From Escherichia coli (lineage in GTDB: Bacteria > Pseudomonadota > Gammaproteobacteria > Enterobacterales > Enterobacteriaceae), in assembly GCF_003991155.1 (NCBI RefSeq), contig NZ_CP031293.1: DNA of 64,000 nt; one strand, written 5' to 3'. Below are positions 14,860 to 22,665 of this stretch, piece after piece; within the stretch, counting starts at the first letter, position 1; each line of letters starts with the position of its first letter. Under the pieces are notes generated by a model. That model worked only from the letters and a program-made list of their open reading frames with translations. It was not told the origin of the DNA and made no database searches. A program made the position numbers and the translations under genes.

Positions 14860-16170
14860 CTACACCAACAGCAAAGATATTGCCGGGATATAGGTAATAA
14901 CCAACAGCAGTAAAATAAGACTAACCAGTAGTGGCACCGCTTCTCGCATAAATTGCCCGACAGAAACCTGCACGGTATTACATACCAGCAGCATCACCGT
15001 TCCGACAGGCGGTGATAACGTTCCTAACGATAAGTTGAGGATCATGATGATGCCAAAATGCACCGGATCAATGCCAAAATGAGCCACCACAGGTTTAAGT
15101 AATGGAACTAATATCAGCAGGATGGCACTACCTTCAAGAAACATGCCAAGCACCAGCAGCAATAGATTGATAATCAATAAAAAGACGTATTTATTATCAG
15201 TCAGAGATGTCACAAACTCCGCAACCGTGATACCTGCCCGCTCAAGGGAAAATATCCAGCCCAGCGCGGCACTCGCCATAATGATTAACATGACCGATGC
15301 CGTCGAACGCGCCGTCTCTGAGAGTGCTGTAAATACATGGCTGATTTTCAGTTCGCGATAAATTACAAAACCAATAAACATCACCAATAATACTGCTACG
15401 GCTCCAGCTTCCGTTGGCGTAAAGATATTTGCCCGAATACCACCGATAACCGCAACAATTAAGAACAGTGCTGGCCAGGCCTGCACCAGCGCCACTGACA
15501 CTTCTTTCGGTTTTGGCCAGTGTTCGCTGGAAGGTTTTAAACCGCGCCGAATAGCTACCAGCCATACAGTGACAATCAACATGGCGGAACACAGCAGACC
15601 GGGCAGGATCCCGGCCATAAACATGGAGCCGATGGAGACATCCGCCACCAGTCCGTAAAGGATCAGTGCAATACCCGGTGGAATAATTGGTGTAATCAGC
15701 GAACCACTTGCCGTTATCGCCGCCGCAAAGCCACGGGAATAACCTTTCTGTTCCATTTCCGGCACCATCATGCGCGATAACATCGCAGCATCCGCCAGGT
15801 TTGAGGCGCTAACGCCGCCCATCATGGTACTGACCAGAATATTAGCCCCACCCAGACCACCGCGCATTCTGCCAATCAACACGTTGGCAATTTGCAAAAT
15901 ACGCGCGGCAATACCGGTATAGCTCATTAACGTGCCTAATAAGATAAAAAATGGAATAGCTAACAGCGAAGGGGTTTGCGTCGTGGCAATCAAACGCTGA
16001 ATTGCTACCATTAACGGCACATTTGAATAGCAAAGGAAGTAGGTCAGAATGCCGCAAAACATCGCCAGCCATACCGGCATATTGATAAATAAACAGATGA
16101 ACATAAGCGGAATGATCATTAGCCAGTTATCCAGCCAGCTTCCCGCCAGTAATTCACTCAATGCTGTCAT
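14860..16170 (-). CDS. TRAP transporter large permease (DctM family)
   Basis: 436-aa polytopic membrane ORF; start overlaps the dctQ stop by 1 nt. Confidence 0.85.
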   Translation of the reverse strand: MTALSELLAGSWLDNWLMIIPLMFICLFINMPVWLAMFCGILTYFLCYSNVPLMVAIQRLIATTQTPSLLAIPFFILLGTLMSYTGIAARILQIANVLIGRMRGGLGGANILVSTMMGGVSASNLADAAMLSRMMVPEMEQKGYSRGFAAAITASGSLITPIIPPGIALILYGLVADVSIGSMFMAGILPGLLCSAMLIVTVWLVAIRRGLKPSSEHWPKPKEVSVALVQAWPALFLIVAVIGGIRANIFTPTEAGAVAVLLVMFIGFVIYRELKISHVFTALSETARSTASVMLIIMASAALGWIFSLERAGITVAEFVTSLTDNKYVFLLIINLLLLVLGMFLEGSAILLILVPLLKPVVAHFGIDPVHFGIIMILNLSLGTLSPPVGTVMLLVCNTVQVSVGQFMREAVPLLVSLILLLLVITYIPAISLLLV

Positions 16171-16631
16171 TATTCACCTTCCTTGCGTGGCGTTTTCTTG
16201 ATCAGGTGTAAGGCAGTAAAACAGGCGATACCGATTGCACCAACCGTGACCGCAATATCGATCCAAAACCAGGATATTTTTAATATTTGCGTGGTTTTAA
16301 ATGCTGTTCCGGCAGCTAATTTCCATGCTGACCAAGCCATCACACTCAGTAAAACAATAGATATCAGAGAGACAAATAACGTTAAAACACGTTGCACGCG
16401 TGGTGTCAGTGCATCAGCTAAAAATGGAATCGACAAATGGGTATTATCCCGCTCGGCAACGACCGCACCAAACATGACTACCCAAATCATTAATAAACCG
16501 GAAACCTCTTCTGTCCACTGTAATGGCATATGAAAACAGTAACGCATTATTACCGCAGCAATGGTCATGATTACCAATATAAAGAGCGTTAATACCGCAG
16601 CAACTTCAATCATTTTCCCTAAAAGACGCAT
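16170..16631 (-). CDS. TRAP transporter small permease (DctQ family)
   Basis: About 153 aa with 4 predicted TM segments; start chosen at the ATG (MRLLGKMIEV...) with AGAGG RBS rather than the upstream GTG. Confidence 0.8.
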   Translation of the reverse strand: MRLLGKMIEVAAVLTLFILVIMTIAAVIMRYCFHMPLQWTEEVSGLLMIWVVMFGAVVAERDNTHLSIPFLADALTPRVQRVLTLFVSLISIVLLSVMAWSAWKLAAGTAFKTTQILKISWFWIDIAVTVGAIGIACFTALHLIKKTPRKEGE

Positions 16632-16650
16632 AAACACCTCTGCTCTTAAC

Positions 16651-16672
16651 GGTCGGTGCCGAAACACCGACC
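16651..16672 (-). other. Intercistronic hairpin between the TRAP binding-protein and permease genes (GGTCGGTG..CACCGACC)
   Basis: 8-bp perfect inverted repeat with 6-nt loop, read from the sequence. Confidence 0.4.
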
Positions 16673-16690
16673 AGTCCTTATGCCATGAAG

Positions 16691-17659
16691 TTATTTCAGC
16701 TGTTGCTGAATAGTGTCATACAAACCAGGGGTCCATTCCGGGAATTGTTGATAGACTTTTAAGGCTTTTTCTTTGAAAGGGGCGACGTCAGGATAGATAA
16801 TTTCCACGCCCTGCTCCTGCATGGTTTTCAACATTGTCGCATCCTGCTCAGTGGTAATTTTCTGGCTATATAAACCAGCTTCATACGCTGTCTGGTGAAT
16901 AATATCTAACTGCGCAGGTGTCAGGGTACTGAAAAACGCTTCACCACCCAACCATAATGATGTATTGGTCAGATAGTTCACCATTGACAGATATTTCGCC
17001 TGCTCATGCAGTTTTTGCCCATACAGAACAGAAACCGGGTTTTCCACACCATCGATCATCCCCTGCGTCAGCGCCGGATAAACGTCTCCCAGCGGCATTG
17101 GCGTTGGGGTTGCGCCCATTGCTTCAATGGCTTTAATCTGCATAACGTTATTCGGCACGCGGATCTTCATCCCTTTCAGGTCTTCAGGTGTACGAATCGG
17201 TTTTTTAGCAATGATCTGCCTGGTACCGTACAGATAGTTGCTCATGACAATATGCACACCTTTTTCCCGTAGTTTCTGTTCTTTTTGTTTAAACCAGTCA
17301 CTGGCATAAATCGCAAACAGTTTCTGCGGATCTTCGGTTAAATAAGGCCCAAACAATATTCCCAGGTCTGCATCGTAGTCAGTTAAAAATCCCACATCAC
17401 TGATGGTGATAATATTCATCCCCATCAACGCTTGTTCAGTAATATCTTGTTTAGAACCTAACTGTGAACTTGGGTAAAGTTCGAAAACAATATCTCCATT
17501 GCTTTTTTTCTTCACAAGTTCTGCCCAGTGCTTCACTACTGTATCCGCTGGCTCGCCGGGGTTACTTTCATAGGCGATTTTGATAGTTACCGGTGCGGCA
17601 TTCAGCATCGGACTAAATAAAGCGAAAAGAAATAAAAGTGGTGTCAGTAATTTTTTCAT
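16691..17659 (-). CDS. TRAP transporter periplasmic solute-binding protein (DctP family)
   Basis: 322 aa; signal peptide MKKLLTPLLFLFALFSPMLNA; conserved KIRVP region typical of carboxylate-binding DctP proteins. Confidence 0.85.
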   Translation of the reverse strand: MKKLLTPLLFLFALFSPMLNAAPVTIKIAYESNPGEPADTVVKHWAELVKKKSNGDIVFELYPSSQLGSKQDITEQALMGMNIITISDVGFLTDYDADLGILFGPYLTEDPQKLFAIYASDWFKQKEQKLREKGVHIVMSNYLYGTRQIIAKKPIRTPEDLKGMKIRVPNNVMQIKAIEAMGATPTPMPLGDVYPALTQGMIDGVENPVSVLYGQKLHEQAKYLSMVNYLTNTSLWLGGEAFFSTLTPAQLDIIHQTAYEAGLYSQKITTEQDATMLKTMQEQGVEIIYPDVAPFKEKALKVYQQFPEWTPGLYDTIQQQLK

Positions 17660-17686
17660 TATTATTACCTGTAAGAGCTTTATCGA

Positions 17687-18883
17687 TTAACGGGGATCTG
17701 CCCGACAGACTGCACTTTTGCTGTAATCAAATGCTTTATACGTTAAAACAAACTCCTGATGTTCCAGTCGTTCTGCGGCACAATATTGACCGTTGGCGAC
17801 ATGTTCAATCACCTGCATAATATCGTCTGCAATATCGTCGAGCGTTGCGCCTTCGCTAATTACACGACCGGCATTAACGTCCATATCGTCAGATAAATGC
17901 TCCCACGTCTGCGGGTTATTACACACTTTAATAATAGGAGCGATCACTGAACCAATAACTGAACCGCGACCTGTGGTAAATAACACCATATGACAGCCAG
18001 AGGCGATAAGTTCCAGTGCTTCTGAGGAATCGTTAATATTCGGATACCCAAAACGAGGTTCACCATCAGGCACCACGTCCATCAACCAAAGCCCAGGAAA
18101 GGGCGTTTGTTGCGTCGGCAAAATAACGCCAGCAATCAGCGCATCGCCCGACTTGGTATAAGCCCCAAGGGATTTTTCTTCCTGAGTGGTTAAGCCGCCT
18201 TCAGCATTACCATTAGAAAAACTCCCCAGCCCCATCAAACTGTAATAACGTTCGGCTTTTGCCATTGCCACTTCGATGGCATCACGTGCCTGCGAACTAG
18301 CCGCGCGCGACATCATATGCTGCTCACAACCAAGCAACTCACCGCTTTCTTCAAAAATACAGGTAGCCCCTTTCTCCAGCAGTTGGTCAAAGGCACGTCC
18401 TACTGCCGGGTTACCCGTGATACCACTGGTGCCATCGGAGCCACCGCAGATAGTACCAACCACCAGGTCGCTCCAGTTCAGGATACAACGCGGTGTATCC
18501 GCAAGCTGTTCCAGCATTTCAGCGACCAACTGCTTACCCAGAGTAATGGTGTTGGTCGTGCCTTTATTTTCCTGAATGACCAGCGTATGGCACGGTCGCC
18601 CACTTTCTCGTACTTCTTGCTCCAGCCGACGGCGATCAAAATTCTCGCACCCCAGCGAAATAATCAGTACACCACCTACGTTGCTATGAATCGCCAGATT
18701 TTTTACCAGACGATAGCCATAATCGCTGGGATAACAACCTGAAAAACCAAAATACTGCACGTCGTGACAAGGAAATCCTTCGGCAATCTTTTTAGCGACA
18801 TGGCTGGCACACTCCACCATAAAGATTACCTGCACAGTATTACGAATACCCGGTCGACCATTTTGCCGTACATAACCTTCCAT
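17687..18883 (-). CDS. UxaA-family (altronate/galactarate dehydratase-like) large subunit
   Basis: 398-aa ORF MEGYVRQNGRPGIRNTVQVIFMVECASHV... resembling the C-terminal catalytic part of UxaA/GarD; start overlaps the small-subunit stop (TAATG). Confidence 0.8.
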   Translation of the reverse strand: MEGYVRQNGRPGIRNTVQVIFMVECASHVAKKIAEGFPCHDVQYFGFSGCYPSDYGYRLVKNLAIHSNVGGVLIISLGCENFDRRRLEQEVRESGRPCHTLVIQENKGTTNTITLGKQLVAEMLEQLADTPRCILNWSDLVVGTICGGSDGTSGITGNPAVGRAFDQLLEKGATCIFEESGELLGCEQHMMSRAASSQARDAIEVAMAKAERYYSLMGLGSFSNGNAEGGLTTQEEKSLGAYTKSGDALIAGVILPTQQTPFPGLWLMDVVPDGEPRFGYPNINDSSEALELIASGCHMVLFTTGRGSVIGSVIAPIIKVCNNPQTWEHLSDDMDVNAGRVISEGATLDDIADDIMQVIEHVANGQYCAAERLEHQEFVLTYKAFDYSKSAVCRADPR

Positions 18884-19194
18884 TATGCTTTTTCCTCTGG
18901 CTGATAGCCGGCATCATCATGATGAAAAATGGCGATGGCATTGCTGGCAAGATTATGGGAATGCACATGTTCACCCATGGCAATATCGCGAGTGGCGTGT
19001 CCGATAATGGCGCCGTATTTCAGAATCGAATCACCATTGTTCAGCGCTTCGCAGGCCAGTTTGTGACCCAGGGTAACGGAACTACAGGCCACCATTTCCC
19101 CCTCATCCCACCAGACAATATCGCCACTGGCGATGTCATTCAGCGCGACTACACAGTTATCTTTGGCATGTAGCTTTAACGCACGTTTGCGCAT
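18883..19194 (-). CDS. SAF-domain small subunit of the split UxaA-type dehydratase
   Basis: About 103 aa from MRKRALKLHAKDNCVVALNDIASGDIV... with GGAGG RBS; corresponds to the N-terminal domain of single-chain UxaA. Confidence 0.7.
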   Translation of the reverse strand: MRKRALKLHAKDNCVVALNDIASGDIVWWDEGEMVACSSVTLGHKLACEALNNGDSILKYGAIIGHATRDIAMGEHVHSHNLASNAIAIFHHDDAGYQPEEKA

Positions 19195-19208
19195 AATTCC
19201 TCCGTACA

Positions 19209-19964
19209 TCAGAAGCCGATCAATGCGCCGCCATCCACCACCAGCACCTGACCACTGACAAATGCCGCTGCGTCTGAAGCCAGATAAACCGCAGCCCAAC
19301 CGATATCTTCCGGCTTGCCGAATTTTTTCATCGGTGTCCGCCCCAGGATTTTGTTACGGCGTTCGTCATCACCTTCAATGGCCTTACGCAACATTGGTGT
19401 ATCGATCCAGCCTGGCGCAATACCGTTGACGCGAATCCCATGAACGGCAAGCTCCGTGGTCATACCGCGAATCATGCCGAGATAGGCTGACTTCGCTGCG
19501 CTGTAGCCAGTAACCAGAGGCTGCCCAAGAAATGAGGTCATCGATGCAGTAAAAAGCACACAGCCTTGACCGCGTTGTTTCATATGCGGCACCAGCGCTT
19601 TGGTTAACGCAAATGCGCCGACTACGTGAACGTCGAGTACTGACTCAAAATCACTGACGCTCATCTCTTCAATCGGTTTTTTGCAGTGATTGCCTGCGTT
19701 ATTGACCAGGATATCGATAGCCCCGTGTTCGCTAATAAGCGCATCAACTTTTTCCTGCGCGGCTGCGGTATCCCCGACATCCATTTGTATCCAACTGGCC
19801 TGCGACCCCAATGTTCCGGCGGTCGCTTGCGCCAGCTCGCCGTTCAGGTCAGCAATAATGACCTTCGCCCCGCTGACTATCATGCATTTCGCCATTGCCA
19901 GCCCCAGCCCACTGGCTGCACCGGTGATCAACGCGGTTTTGTTATGTAAAGAAAAAGCATTCAT
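19209..19964 (-). CDS. Short-chain dehydrogenase/reductase (KduD/IdnO-like)
   Basis: 251 aa; TGAASGLG nucleotide-binding motif, IDILVNNAG, YSAAK catalytic motif; AAGGAG RBS. Confidence 0.85.
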   Translation of the reverse strand: MNAFSLHNKTALITGAASGLGLAMAKCMIVSGAKVIIADLNGELAQATAGTLGSQASWIQMDVGDTAAAQEKVDALISEHGAIDILVNNAGNHCKKPIEEMSVSDFESVLDVHVVGAFALTKALVPHMKQRGQGCVLFTASMTSFLGQPLVTGYSAAKSAYLGMIRGMTTELAVHGIRVNGIAPGWIDTPMLRKAIEGDDERRNKILGRTPMKKFGKPEDIGWAAVYLASDAAAFVSGQVLVVDGGALIGF

Positions 19965-19975
19965 GGTGTCGCTCC

Positions 19976-20989
19976 TTAAAGGTCAATGAGGATTTTGGTA
20001 TACGCGCCGGGATCACTTGCCCAGTCGCTAAAAGCATGATCAGCCTGTTCCAGCGGGTAGTGAGCACTCACCAGATTGCTGACCGGATAACGCCCGGACT
20101 CCATCAATGCCAGCACGGCACGAAAATCCGCCACGGTGGCATTGCGCGAACCACGGATATCCAGTTCTTTCATCAGGAACTGCGCACTCTGATAACTCAC
20201 TGGCTGTTTGGCGTAACCGACATAAACCACACGACCGCTAAACGCCACCAACCCTGTAGCCTGTTCAATGGTTTGTTGATTACCCACCGCTTCAATCACC
20301 ACTTCCGGGCCGCGACCGTCATTTAACAGCACCAGTTCTGCCGCCACGTCACATTGCTGCGAATTAAGAAAACGTTGCGCACCGCATTCCAGGGCAATGT
20401 TCTGCTTGCGATCATCAATATCGATAGCAATTACGCGCGCCCCCATGGCGGATGCCGCGGCGATAGCGCCAAGGCCAATTACCCCACAACCGATAACTGC
20501 GACCCATTCACCCACATTAATTTGCGCACGTCTGGCCGCATGTAGTCCCACGGCCAGCGGTTCTACCAGCGCTAACTCATCAACACTTAAGGCATTACAG
20601 ACAATGACTTTATGTGCAGGCATCGTCAGTTGTTGCGCCATCCCCCCCTGACGTTGCACACCAAGAGTTTGGTTGTTTTTACAGGCGTTAGGACGACCGC
20701 TCAGACAGGAGCTGCACACGCCACACTCAGTGCAAGGCAGAACGACCACCCGGTCACCTGGCTTGATCGCCCCTGCCATATCGCCAGTTGCCAGCACCGT
20801 GCCGCCAATTTCATGCCCCGGAATACAGGGATAATTAACCAGCGGATTCAGTCCCCGCCATGTATTGAGGTCAGAACCACACAGTCCGACACGCTCAACA
20901 TTGATTAGCACTTCTCCTTTACCGCAGACAGGTTCGGGGATATCAACAAATCGCGCCTGACTTCCCTGCTCAATGGTTAATGCCTTCAT
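19976..20989 (-). CDS. Zinc-dependent medium-chain dehydrogenase (IdnD / sorbitol dehydrogenase-like)
   Basis: 337 aa; GLCGSDL, GHEIGG, structural-zinc Cys cluster CTECGVCSSC, GCGVIGLG NAD fold; AAGGAGA RBS. Confidence 0.85.
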   Translation of the reverse strand: MKALTIEQGSQARFVDIPEPVCGKGEVLINVERVGLCGSDLNTWRGLNPLVNYPCIPGHEIGGTVLATGDMAGAIKPGDRVVVLPCTECGVCSSCLSGRPNACKNNQTLGVQRQGGMAQQLTMPAHKVIVCNALSVDELALVEPLAVGLHAARRAQINVGEWVAVIGCGVIGLGAIAAASAMGARVIAIDIDDRKQNIALECGAQRFLNSQQCDVAAELVLLNDGRGPEVVIEAVGNQQTIEQATGLVAFSGRVVYVGYAKQPVSYQSAQFLMKELDIRGSRNATVADFRAVLALMESGRYPVSNLVSAHYPLEQADHAFSDWASDPGAYTKILIDL

Positions 20990-21001
20990 TCATTGCTCTC
21001 C

Positions 21002-21688
21002 TTACATTACGCCGAAGGTTTCAAAGGCCTGTACCGTGCTCATGCCATCACTGATGGCTTTGCGCACTTCACTTTCAGTTGCCACTTTTTCCAGGGCCTG
21101 GGTAATAACTTCTTTCTCAACAACCTGGGGAATAATCAGTAATCCATCACGATCACCAAACACGATATCGCCCGGATTCACCCGCACGCCGTGAAATTCA
21201 ATAGGTACGCCGAAGTCGATGACCTTGCCGCGCGGACCTTGATCTTGTGCGTAAGTGCCATGACAAAAGGTGGGAAATTTCAATTCAAGAATTTCAGCAG
21301 AGTCACGGGCGTAACCATCGAGTACCGCACCTGCTGCTTTCAGATGCATGGCACGGGTAGACATCAACCCGCCCCACAAGGCATAGCGCAGAGAGCTGCC
21401 CGTAGTGATGTAAACATCGTTCTCTTTGAGGGCATCCAGCGCTTCAAACATGATGCCAAACGGTTTTTCGCCAATCGCCGTCTTACCCGACGTCGATTTG
21501 GTTTCGTAAACGTCCGACTCCAGCACCGGCATTGCCCGGCCTGCCACCACCGTATTCACATCCAGCGGCTTGATTGCCGGAGAAACAAACTGGTGCATAT
21601 AGCCCAGCGTGTCGAGAATATCGCCAACCACGGCGGTAAATAGCCGGGTTTTCATCAAAGCAAAAAGTTCGTTATCACTCTTCCACAT
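21002..21688 (-). CDS. RraA-like protein, putative class II 4-hydroxy-2-oxoacid aldolase
   Basis: About 228 aa from MWKSDNELFALMKTRLFTAVVGDILD... (RraA/MenG-like fold family); first gene of the operon. Confidence 0.75.
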   Translation of the reverse strand: MWKSDNELFALMKTRLFTAVVGDILDTLGYMHQFVSPAIKPLDVNTVVAGRAMPVLESDVYETKSTSGKTAIGEKPFGIMFEALDALKENDVYITTGSSLRYALWGGLMSTRAMHLKAAGAVLDGYARDSAEILELKFPTFCHGTYAQDQGPRGKVIDFGVPIEFHGVRVNPGDIVFGDRDGLLIIPQVVEKEVITQALEKVATESEVRKAISDGMSTVQAFETFGVM

Positions 21689-21694
21689 TATTTT

Positions 21695-21728
21695 CACCCT
21701 GTAAGCCTGTTTAACAGGTTTACAGGGT
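21695..21728. promoter_or_regulatory. Nested perfect palindrome (ACCCTGTAA-G-CCTGTT-T-AACAGG-T-TTACAGGGT) at the 5' end of the operon; candidate operator or RBS-occluding RNA hairpin
   Basis: Read from the sequence; lies 7 nt upstream of the RraA-like start codon and overlaps its Shine-Dalgarno region. Confidence 0.35.
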
Positions 21729-21951
21729 AAGGAGAAAAAGCGCACAATACTGCGAAGGGCGTCACGAAAAAGTTGTGTATTTACTATTTCTTCGCCACTC
21801 TTTCACACAATATGTCTTTGATTCGCACTGCATGGCGGGCGCACAGGCGCAGTAGTCTATTGATAATCAAGGGTTCTGGAGGAAAATATGAAGGATACAG
21901 TCCCGGTATTCTGGATTTTACCGACCAGGAAAAAGTACAACAGGAGTAAAA

Positions 21952-22665
21952 ATGAGTGAGAGTGCGTTATTGACCAGCGTAACGTTATCGTCACAGGTCA
22001 AAAATCATATTCTTAATCTGATCGCCGAACAAAAATTGACACCGGGGATGCCAGTTCCCAGTGAAATTCAGTTGATTCAGAAATTGGGCGTCAGTCGGGG
22101 TATTGTGCGTGAGGCCTATCGTTCACTTGCCGCCCTGGGGATTCTGGAAACGCACAGCGGTAAAGTGCCACGGATCAAAAAATTTGATGATGAAGTGCTG
22201 CGCGTGGTGTTTGGATTTGCCCTGGCGACCGAACAAGTAACAACAGAGCAAATTCTTCAAGTACGTCGCTGGCTAGAGTTGGGCGTTGTGGAAGCTGCTG
22301 CCCGTAATGGCGGAGAAGAAGATTTTGCTAACCTACGGGCTGAAATGGCAAAAATCCGCGAACAGTTCGATGATGTCGAAAGCTTTATCACCCATGACAT
22401 CCGCTTCCATCAGTTACTCGCCGTTGCCTCAAAAAATCCGCTTTTTATGATGTTATTGCAGGCATTACATCAGCAATTGCGGCAATCCATCCAGGAGGGA
22501 TTAAACGCCCAAAGCGATCAGAAAGAGTATGGCAATCACATCATCACACTACACCAGAAAATCTGCGACGCTGTGTGTGCCAGAGATGTCGAAACGGCGA
22601 CTCAAGCCATGAAATCACACTTCGACAGCCCGGTCAGTGCACTGATCAATAATTCCTCGCCATAA
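21952..22665 (+). CDS. GntR-family transcriptional regulator (FadR-type C-terminal domain)
   Basis: 237 aa; N-terminal winged HTH (EIQLIQKLGVSRGIVREAYRSL) followed by an all-helical domain; divergent from the catabolic operon. Confidence 0.85.
   Translation: MSESALLTSVTLSSQVKNHILNLIAEQKLTPGMPVPSEIQLIQKLGVSRGIVREAYRSLAALGILETHSGKVPRIKKFDDEVLRVVFGFALATEQVTTEQILQVRRWLELGVVEAAARNGGEEDFANLRAEMAKIREQFDDVESFITHDIRFHQLLAVASKNPLFMMLLQALHQQLRQSIQEGLNAQSDQKEYGNHIITLHQKICDAVCARDVETATQAMKSHFDSPVSALINNSSP

Follow-up and report, generated by a model that had tools for sequence, protein, structure and literature searches.

Members of the UxaA/GarD dehydratase superfamily (COG2721), such as UxaA (D-altronate dehydratase, EC 4.2.1.7) and GarD (galactarate dehydratase, EC 4.2.1.42), are single chains of three domains, and the four conserved cysteines of the superfamily are proposed iron ligands (PMC6336799). 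Their characteristic reaction turns a sugar acid into a 2-keto-3-deoxy acid by dehydration and depends on Fe2+ or Mn2+. A characterised member of the family prefers D-arabinonate and turns over D-altronate, L-galactonate and L-fuconate weakly (PMC6336799); all three share the C2-C4 configuration of D-arabinonate. Enzymes of this type can also be built from two polypeptides. SuyAB, the (2R)-sulfolactate sulfo-lyase (EC 4.4.1.24), is a two-subunit superfamily member that lacks the dehydratase cysteine set (PMC6336799), for P. mimosarum, gene context has led to the proposal of a two-subunit L-fuconate dehydratase (A19U_RS0100650/655; Watanabe et al. 2019, PMC6336799), and the split pair Cj0482/Cj0483 lies within the L-fucose cluster of Campylobacter jejuni (PMC9100392). 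JGI annotation likewise uses the names 'altronate dehydratase small subunit' and 'large subunit'. Another relevant system is the L-galactonate pathway of E. coli K-12, which imports, oxidises, reduces and dehydrates its substrate by means of the MFS transporter LgoT, LgoD, UxaB (a member of the mannitol-dehydrogenase family) and UxaA.

The window analysed here, a stretch of 64,000 nucleotides from Escherichia coli (contig NZ_CP031293.1), carries a small and a large gene of this kind side by side (Table 1). Since the two-subunit form has been published (PMC6336799, PMC9100392) and is named by JGI, the novelty that the original prediction implied for such an architecture was overstated; the pair, too, is already two genes in RefSeq. 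Its reading of the genes themselves follows directly from the sequence. The small ORF runs from an ATG at 19194-19192, preceded by the ribosome-binding site GGAGG (19203-19199) at a gap of 4 bases, to a TAA at 18885-18883, and the large ORF from an ATG at 18883-18881 to a stop at 17689-17687. The stop of the first thus overlaps the start of the second within TAATG (18885-18881), with one base in common. A GAGGA motif lies 9 nt upstream of the large-ORF ATG, inside the small ORF, and translational coupling of the two is plausible. E. albertii, E. whittamii and Sodalis have the same TAATG overlap. Given that three other orthologous loci (L004, L011 and L012) have gaps of 4-25 nt and Shine-Dalgarno sequences of their own at the junction, neither overlap nor coupling is a conserved requirement. 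A scan for promoters and terminators gave a result at the level of chance.

Table 1. Genes of the operon, in transcriptional order, and its divergent regulator (coordinates are positions in the window).
Feature	Coordinates	Strand	Description
RraA-like protein	21002..21688	-	228 aa; first operon gene; RefSeq 'RraA family protein'
Zn-dependent alcohol (polyol) dehydrogenase (Zn-ADH)	19976..20989	-	337 aa; NCBIfam and PDB matches to polyol and aldonate Zn-ADHs
SDR oxidoreductase	19209..19964	-	251 aa; NCBIfam and PDB matches
Small subunit gene	18883..19194	-	103 aa; SAF (beta-clip) domain; RefSeq WP_001361279.1, 'UxaA family hydrolase'
Large (catalytic) subunit gene	17687..18883	-	398 aa; GD_AH_second and GD_AH_C domains; RefSeq WP_000399430.1
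TRAP solute-binding protein DctP	16691..17659	-	322 aa; match to PDB 4OVT
TRAP small permease DctQ	16170..16631	-	RefSeq CDS; NCBIfam YiaM-like
TRAP large permease DctM	14860..16170	-	TIGR00786 dctM, 390 bits, above cutoff
FadR/GntR-family (FCD) regulator, divergent	21952..22665	+	RefSeq annotation; NCBIfam GntR/FCD

Homology searches place both proteins inside the UxaA/GarD family, as had been expected. The small ORF matches the Pfam SAF domain (PF08666, E 6e-11) and has the N-terminal domain of UxaA as its closest solved structure (PDB 3K3S, E 4e-16). The large ORF matches GD_AH_second (PF04295, E 3e-26) and GD_AH_C (PF20629, E 4e-75), and its closest solved structure is GarD (6U7L, E 1e-31). 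When joined, the two proteins (501 aa) align end to end with K-12 UxaA (495 aa, 32% identity) and with GarD (523 aa, 29% identity), matching them in length and domain order. The small subunit corresponds to the N-terminal ~105 residues of these enzymes, and the gene junction maps to residue ~107 of UxaA and ~119 of GarD, in the linker past the SAF domain, so that the domain boundary and the gene junction coincide. In the alignment, 47 residues of the large subunit are invariant in UxaA and GarD, including the cysteines Cys25, Cys79 and Cys146; Cys50, which all 56 of the 56 split homologues share, sits three columns away from the fourth UxaA/GarD cysteine in the three-sequence alignment. The resemblance of the pair to UxaA and GarD, together with its conservation across genomes, is far beyond chance, and by its SAF domain, catalytic domains and cysteines the pair is assigned to this superfamily.

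Taken further, the two ORFs are predicted to encode the SAF and catalytic subunits of a single sugar-acid dehydratase, and the two polypeptides would form one complex. Fused single-chain forms (P0040 and P0047, 63-67% identical, with a low-complexity linker) occur inside the same clade, which indirectly supports one enzyme specified by two genes. Moreover, the small and large genes are adjacent and co-oriented at every locus compared, and across taxa a SAF gene of ~90-105 aa stands beside a catalytic gene of ~390-410 aa.

The pair belongs to an eight-gene operon in which it follows genes for an RraA-like protein, a Zn-ADH and an SDR and precedes those for the TRAP transporter DctPQM; the divergently transcribed GntR-family regulator is probably its repressor. 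The operon and regulator lie between gltA and abrB, where they take the place of the fimbrial genes ybgOPQD. This island is present in ~12% of complete E. coli genomes, the operon recurs in E. albertii and E. whittamii, and it is horizontally acquired. The literature searched yielded nothing on an E. coli island between gltA and abrB. Among the encoded proteins, the RraA-like one has weak NCBIfam and PDB matches to HMG/CHA aldolase and RraA, and the Zn-ADH is 35% identical to K-12 LgoD. The SDR matches gluconate 5-dehydrogenase and KduD-type enzymes amid generic FabG-type ones in NCBIfam and the PDB; for the SDR and the Zn-ADH, these comparisons do not discriminate between substrates. DctP is 68% identical to PDB 4OVT (Oant_3902), with a TM-score of 0.91-0.97 between structure model and PDB entry in a fold search. 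The 4OVT structure was presumably solved with L-fuconate bound, and 4O8M is taken here to be an L-galactonate-bound structure.

The survey of gene context covered 12 individual locus look-ups, a small sample; a genome-contig search with a single protein returned 4 loci. A core of RraA-like, SDR, small and large genes is kept in all seven orthologous loci, with RraA-like orthologues that are 58-82% identical and SDR orthologues, adjoining the split pair, that are 57-76% identical. An orthologue of the Zn-ADH is found in Sodalis and L021 (69-74%) and is missing from the other four loci, three of which have a uronate isomerase directly downstream. In L004 this is UxaC, accompanied by a PaeX-like pectin acetylesterase, and in L011 and L020 it is a Bh0493-type uronate isomerase (E 5e-155 to PDB 2Q08). 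In L021, a canonical single-chain UxaA, UxaB and a PfkB-family (KdgK-like) kinase adjoin the split set. Orthologues of the GntR regulator (42-61%) stand beside core genes in L004, L010, L012 and L020.

The transporter has a context of its own. DctP orthologues (67-76% identical) are found beside LgoD in Citrobacter and Salipiger (L013, L015), and a further one (L014) lies next to a Zn-ADH of the E. coli island type, 48% identical to that of the island. In Citrobacter farmeri, the E. coli-type TRAP binding protein stands in for LgoT at the syntenic lgoD-lgoR site, and in Salipiger it accompanies LgoD, UxaB and single-chain UxaA. These positions, at the lgo site and beside LgoD, tie the imported ligand to L-galactonate. 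An island-positive strain still has lgoT-lgoR-lgoD intact, and 5393 of the 5426 genomes carry lgo.

The best overall explanation, in which moderate confidence seems warranted, is a route from L-galactonate through D-altronate to pyruvate, in which both the substrate and the parts played by the Zn-ADH, SDR and RraA-like protein are predicted from sequence and gene context. The TRAP system would import L-galactonate, possibly L-fuconate too. The Zn-ADH, by analogy to LgoD, would oxidise the imported hexonate at C5 to D-tagaturonate, which the SDR, as a D-tagaturonate (5-keto-aldonate) reductase, would convert to D-altronate. The two-subunit dehydratase would then form 2-keto-3-deoxy-D-gluconate (KDG), the very reaction of UxaA, and the RraA-like protein, with its class II pyruvate-lyase fold, may act as a metal-dependent lyase that cleaves KDG to pyruvate and D-glyceraldehyde, which would make the module independent of KdgK and Eda. 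A uronate isomerase yields D-tagaturonate, so that a reductase and then an altronate dehydratase are the expected next steps. The original prediction had entertained a substrate other than altronate or galactarate; context in the relatives points, if anything, toward altronate.

This proposed logic of import, oxidation, reduction and dehydration is that of the K-12 L-galactonate pathway, yet every step is non-orthologous: a TRAP system instead of the MFS transporter LgoT, the island Zn-ADH instead of LgoD, an SDR instead of the mannitol-dehydrogenase-family UxaB, and a split dehydratase instead of single-chain UxaA, with the RraA-like enzyme as an extra. Unlike UxaA, which belongs to the exuR regulon, the pair comes from an accessory island that also encodes a dedicated transporter, a regulator and an RraA-like lyase. 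Several observations weigh against the altronate route, namely its redundancy with the intact lgo genes, the presence of UxaA, UxaB and a kinase in L021 already, and identities of only 32% between the pair and canonical UxaA and 35% between the Zn-ADH and LgoD. In the literature searched, no paper on UxaA together with RraA and no precedent for an RraA-like protein as a KDG aldolase were found; the one sugar-acid RraA-like enzyme encountered, FlDet, is a 2-keto-3-deoxy-glucarate dehydratase/decarboxylase (PMC8563752). Two other routes through the dehydratase were considered and rejected. Gluconate, reached from L-idonate by way of 5-keto-gluconate, and mannonate, reached from L-gulonate by way of fructuronate, both lack the C2/C3 configuration of the family, a rule drawn from Fischer projections of the known family substrates available for comparison.

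The main rival is direct dehydration of the imported acid, with the pair acting as an L-fuconate and/or L-galactonate dehydratase and the SDR and RraA-like protein acting downstream, a possible but rather doubtful arrangement. In one variant, the SDR could be a 4-dehydrogenase and the RraA-like protein a 2,4-diketo-acid C-C hydrolase, doing the work that an FAH-family hydrolase does in the Xanthomonas route; in a second variant, the RraA-like protein would be an aldolase producing pyruvate and L-lactaldehyde or L-glyceraldehyde. The Zn-ADH would then belong to an L-galactonate branch of its own that leads into host UxaB and UxaA. The enzyme count fits such a scheme (a dehydratase, an SDR and one C-C cleaving enzyme), as does the presumed L-fuconate ligand of 4OVT. 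It would also bring a function missing from E. coli, which would account for the coexistence of the island with lgo and uxa genes. TRAP systems with dual specificity for L-fuconate and L-galactonate have been reported (PMC5507952).

Published and sequence relatives lend further weight to L-fuconate. The proposed P. mimosarum enzyme (PMC6336799) has the same fission into adjacent SAF (~90-105 aa) and catalytic (~390-410 aa) genes, and Cj0482/Cj0483 lie in an L-fucose cluster (PMC9100392). The nearest sequence neighbours outside the clade, with large subunits 56-59% identical to that of E. coli (L006, L022 and L023, defined as L-fuconate type by context), are found in L-fucose-type clusters with an aldo-keto reductase, an amidohydrolase-2 (lactonase-type), an SDR, an FAH-family hydrolase and a RhaM-type mutarotase; that their substrate would be L-fuconate is a further observation against the altronate route. 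The E. coli clade, however, keeps its own partners, an RraA-like protein, a non-orthologous SDR (33-35% identical to the L-fucose-cluster SDR) and a Zn-ADH or uronate isomerase. L-fucose dehydrogenase, lactonase and mutarotase occur in none of the seven core loci, and the clade is also without the FAH hydrolase. Furthermore, UxaC- and Bh0493-type isomerases and pectin genes, which would have no role in L-fuconate catabolism, flank the core in L004, L011 and L020. The substrate of the E. coli pair may differ from that of its L-fuconate-type relatives and be D-altronate.

An aldarate route is improbable. Here the pair would be a GarD-like enzyme acting on galactarate or a related diacid, and the RraA-like protein, like FlDet, would lead to alpha-ketoglutarate semialdehyde; just this downstream step is known from a characterised RraA-like enzyme (PMC8563752). 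GarD is indeed the sole NCBIfam match for either subunit, but the scores of 38 bits (small) and 163 bits (large) are far under the cutoff of the GarD equivalog TIGR03248 (730.85 bits). An aldehyde (alpha-ketoglutarate semialdehyde) dehydrogenase or a uronate dehydrogenase is found in none of the seven loci, and the TRAP context indicates a mono-acid, L-galactonate. TRAP systems and paired dehydrogenases are also found in sulfonate pathways, and the operon could in principle be one for sulfonate degradation, with the pair as a SuyAB-type (2R)-sulfolactate sulfo-lyase. That is very improbable even though SuyAB is the classic two-subunit member of the superfamily (PMC6336799): the pair has the dehydratase cysteines that SuyAB lacks, SuyAB eliminates sulfite and sits among sulfonate genes, no sulfite exporter, sulfite dehydrogenase or sulfonate gene is present in any locus, and the contexts seen are those of hexuronates, hexonates and pectin.

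Finally, the two ORFs do add up to one UxaA in length and domain order, as would the non-functional fragments left when a nonsense or frameshift mutation, or a sequencing error, interrupts a uxaA-like gene in decay, but this reading is effectively refuted by the identical arrangement in many complete genomes, by its persistence across genera at 50-74% protein identity with varying junction spacing, by the dN/dS of both ORFs and by the sizes of the closest homologues. Of 5426 complete E. coli genomes, 660 contain the stretch over its full length at 99% identity or more; all ten of the records listed annotate two 'UxaA family hydrolase' coding sequences. E. albertii, E. whittamii, Sodalis, Propionivibrio and four metagenome loci also have two separate genes, and among the 120 closest homologues of the large subunit, 117 have the length expected of a split protein; a word-index search with the small subunit gave 13 matches, close relatives only. 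Both ORFs are under purifying selection, with dN/dS against E. albertii of 0.10 for the small and 0.07 for the large ORF and an overall range of 0.07-0.15 (0.10-0.15 for the small ORF). The claim that the split is no frameshift or assembly artefact is therefore borne out by these genomes, the split orthologues and the dN/dS values, and the split reflects a gene fission at the domain linker that is stably inherited.

The further suggestion that the split form may mark a subfamily with a different substrate is not supported in that form. The substrates proposed for split enzymes are varied (sulfolactate, L-fuconate and, for the present pair, probably altronate), and the fused forms P0040 and P0047 fall within the same clade, so that the split defines no substrate class. 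Fission and re-fusion are evolutionarily labile in the UxaA/GarD family, and split architecture is therefore no predictor of substrate.

With two-subunit UxaA/GarD enzymes already published and annotated, the architecture alone matters little; the interest lies in the function of the operon, an accessory set of genes present in about one of every eight complete E. coli genomes. The operon may provide a high-affinity, TRAP-dependent route for L-galactonate or L-fuconate, acids that arise when sugars of dietary pectin and mucin are oxidised and reduced. The four-gene core could, tentatively, represent an undescribed, self-contained non-phosphorylative branch of hexuronate or hexonate catabolism with the RraA-fold protein as the missing cleavage enzyme, and no description of a role for the RraA-like protein in sugar-acid catabolism by this operon was found in the literature searched. 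In such a branch, the RraA-fold protein may be an aldolase of a new kind that acts on 2-keto-3-deoxy-hexonates, or else an acylpyruvate-type hydrolase in place of the FAH-family enzyme. If this is true, ~12% of E. coli, along with relatives such as Sodalis and Propionivibrio, would gain a route to pyruvate that bypasses KdgK and Eda or, alternatively, an L-fuconate route otherwise missing from E. coli.

The minus strand of the window encodes a UxaA-type dehydratase as two adjacent genes, one for a small SAF-domain subunit and one for a large catalytic subunit. The original prediction of two ORFs with a TAATG overlap and a GGAGG ribosome-binding site is exactly borne out by the minus-strand sequence and the ORF list. 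A single A is common to the small-ORF stop and the large-ORF start, the GGAGG lies 4 bases ahead of the small-ORF ATG, and the stop of the SDR gene lies 14 nt upstream of the small ORF. The ORF lister also offered a 138-aa small ORF with a TTG start overlapping the SDR gene; it was rejected, the 103-aa form being backed by RefSeq and all orthologues. Termination-reinitiation coupling of the large to the small ORF is plausible in E. coli, and independent initiation from a GAGGA within the small ORF, 9 nt upstream of the large-ORF ATG, would be equally possible. The overlap is common to Escherichia species and Sodalis; in Propionivibrio and two metagenome-derived loci (L011 and L012) the ORFs are separated by 4-25 nt, and the large ORF has its own Shine-Dalgarno sequence in the longer two spacers.

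Positions in the window of the split dehydratase genes and associated features
Feature	Position	Strand	Length	Source
Small ORF	ATG 19194, TAA 18885-18883	minus	103 aa	sequence and ORF list
Large ORF	ATG 18883-18881, runs to 17687	minus	398 aa	sequence and ORF list
GGAGG	19203-19199	minus		
TAATG overlap	18885-18881	minus		
Nine-gene sugar-acid block	14860-22665			
NCBIfam NF009399 match	21002-21688			

The structural reading as a two-gene UxaA-type enzyme is correct. By Pfam, the small protein has a SAF domain and the large one GD_AH_second and GD_AH_C. Among solved structures, the small protein matches an isolated altronate hydrolase N-terminal domain (3K3S, E 4e-16), and the match of the large one is to galactarate dehydratase, over residues 195-503 (6U7L, E 1e-31). 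When concatenated (501 aa), the pair gives an end-to-end alignment with K-12 UxaA (495 aa, 32% identity) and GarD (523 aa, 29% identity). This alignment also confirmed the proposed coincidence of domain boundary and gene junction, as the junction maps to UxaA residue ~107 and GarD residue ~119, within the post-SAF linker. Aligned with 55 homologues, UxaA and GarD, the large subunit retains 47 invariant positions including Cys25, Cys79 and Cys146; Cys50, invariant in the split set, falls 3 columns off the fourth family cysteine in a three-sequence alignment. The family cysteines are proposed iron ligands, conserved in all members except SuyAB (Watanabe et al., PMC6336799). On the strength of these domains, structure matches, full-length alignment and invariant residues, the predicted placement within the UxaA/GarD superfamily is solid. 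Scores on the GarD equivalog model, 38 bits for the small and 163 bits for the large protein, fall far below its cutoff of 730.85 bits.

Neither a frameshift nor an assembly error accounts for the split, as had been anticipated. The window is chromosomal E. coli DNA. Of 5426 complete E. coli genomes, 660 contain the 1.7-kb stretch at ≥99% identity and full coverage, on the chromosome in every case; all 10 records listed show 100% identity and annotate two 'UxaA family hydrolase' CDS. Split orthologues (50-60% identity for the small subunit, 61-74% for the large) occur in E. whittamii, E. albertii, Sodalis, Propionivibrio dicarboxylicus and four metagenome-derived loci, and comparison with the remaining Escherichia copies gives a dN/dS of 0.07 for the large ORF and 0.10-0.15 for the small one. 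Among the best 120 large-subunit homologues, 117 are 375-425 aa long and lack SAF. A pseudogene reading of the pair is effectively excluded.

The pair belongs to a minus-strand operon between gltA and abrB (RraA-like, Zn-ADH, SDR, small, large, DctP, DctQ, DctM) with a divergent FadR/GntR regulator; the stops of gltA and the convergent DctM gene are only 46 bp apart. Since the K-12 interval holds the ybgOPQD fimbrial operon instead, the sugar-acid block is an accessory island, which 660 of 5426 complete E. coli genomes carry, as do E. albertii and E. whittamii.

Across seven orthologous loci outside Escherichia, the RraA-like, SDR, small and large genes are retained in all seven, the remaining components being variable. 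Zn-ADH is kept in Sodalis (74% identity), which has an MFS anion transporter where E. coli has the TRAP system, and in metagenome-derived L021 (69%), whose TRAP system is related (DctP 49% identical). In three of the four loci that lack Zn-ADH, a uronate isomerase gene lies directly downstream of the large subunit. The Propionivibrio locus encodes UxaC and a PaeX-like pectin acetylesterase. In L011 (11437-12687) and L020 (9341-10594), both metagenome-derived, a 416-417 aa ORF (75% identical between the two) matches nothing in Pfam or NCBIfam, yet its homology to the uronate isomerase Bh0493 of Bacillus halodurans is strong (PDB 2Q08, E 5e-155); both profile libraries seem to lack this enzyme family. 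Uronate isomerases yield D-tagaturonate or D-fructuronate, the textbook next steps being a reductase and then altronate dehydratase. L011 is surrounded by pectin-degradation genes and includes an enolase-superfamily dehydratase. Dak1/Dak2 kinase genes lie near L020; that they would fit a glyceraldehyde product is only suggestive. L021 (5083-13814) carries the split set (RraA-like, Zn-ADH, SDR, small, large) together with convergent single-chain UxaA, UxaB and a PfkB-family (KdgK-like) kinase; the presence of both sets in one locus speaks against simple redundancy of the two dehydratases.

The TRAP binding protein has its own contexts. E. coli DctP shares 68% identity with Oant_3902, an Ochrobactrum protein of solved structure, and orthologues 67-76% identical occupy LgoT's place at the syntenic lgoD-lgoR locus of Citrobacter farmeri. 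In Salipiger a DctP orthologue adjoins LgoD, UxaB and single-chain UxaA; in another locus (L014) one adjoins a Zn-ADH 48% identical to that of the window. The opgB-lgoD-lgoR-tsr locus, with DctPQM in C. farmeri and the MFS transporter LgoT in K-12, is a clean example of non-orthologous transporter replacement.

The conserved core, the uronate isomerases in loci without Zn-ADH and the binding-protein contexts lead to a simplest route, judged about equally likely to be right or wrong. Imported L-galactonate would be oxidized by Zn-ADH to D-tagaturonate, which the SDR would reduce to D-altronate; the split enzyme would dehydrate this to 2-keto-3-deoxy-D-gluconate (KDG), and the RraA-like protein, present in every locus, would cleave KDG. 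Confidence is no higher because the route would duplicate an existing one, lgo being nearly universal in E. coli (genome search with the K-12 lgoT-lgoR-lgoD region) and kept in island-positive strain 2016C-3878, and because in L021 canonical single-chain UxaA, UxaB and a PfkB-family kinase immediately adjoin the split genes. The native L-galactonate locus also varies between genomes: coverage of lgoT-lgoR-lgoD is below 80% in ~1000 of 5393 genomes, and 846 match at only 80-90% identity. The RraA-like protein, although its database matches are weak, is a member of the class II pyruvate aldolase/decarboxylase fold (PMC5065237). A literature search found no paper on a partnership between a split dehydratase and an RraA-like protein. 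The NF009399 match is to a 501-aa 'fumarylacetoacetate hydrolase family protein' with an RraA-like domain at 340-475, a natural FAH-RraA fusion and a hint that the two C-C cleaving folds are functionally linked.

That the pair dehydrates L-fuconate or L-galactonate directly is a serious rival, if a rather doubtful one, on several grounds. Outside the clade, the closest relatives (56-59% identity) come from gene clusters that are clearly of the L-fucose type, with aldo-keto reductase, amidohydrolase-2, small, large, SDR, MFS, RhaM and FAH hydrolase genes; the enzyme count equals that of the E. coli core (dehydratase, SDR and one C-C cleaving enzyme), with RraA-like in FAH's place. From C2 to C4, D-altronate, L-galactonate and L-fuconate are configured like D-arabinonate. 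A characterised family member prefers D-arabinonate and turns over the other three weakly, and specificity can differ even at 67% identity (PMC6336799). In one such cluster, from Sphingomonas phyllosphaerae (L006, 7703-9004), the SAF small subunit has no gene of its own: a 433-aa ORF has an aldo-keto reductase (probably L-fucose dehydrogenase) as its N-terminal part, the SAF subunit as its last ~95 residues, and an ATGA overlap with the large subunit. Either AKR and SAF are truly fused here, or an internal start has gone unrecognised. An aldarate route with an FlDet-like RraA enzyme (PMC8563752) is a minor alternative, and a SuyAB-like reading is effectively excluded.

The two-subunit form has precedents. 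SuyAB is one, and a two-subunit L-fuconate dehydratase was inferred from Paraburkholderia mimosarum gene context (Watanabe et al. 2019, PMC6336799); in the Campylobacter L-fucose cluster, Cj0482 (88 aa) and Cj0483 (389 aa) are annotated as altronate hydratase N- and C-terminal parts (PMC9100392). The names 'altronate dehydratase large subunit' and 'small subunit' are in use in JGI annotation. The two-gene architecture is already known, the E. coli pair being an uncharacterised member, and novelty is low. Two homologues in the same clade, P0040 (531 aa, 67% identity) and P0047 (560 aa, 63%), genuinely carry both parts on one chain, SAF being followed by a 35-60 residue Ala/Pro/Thr-rich low-complexity linker and then the catalytic part, which suggests secondary re-fusion. 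Their existence is good, though indirect, evidence that the E. coli pair would act as one enzyme. It also shows fission and fusion to be labile within one clade, so that the split, once proposed to mark a subfamily with a different substrate, does not by itself define a substrate class.
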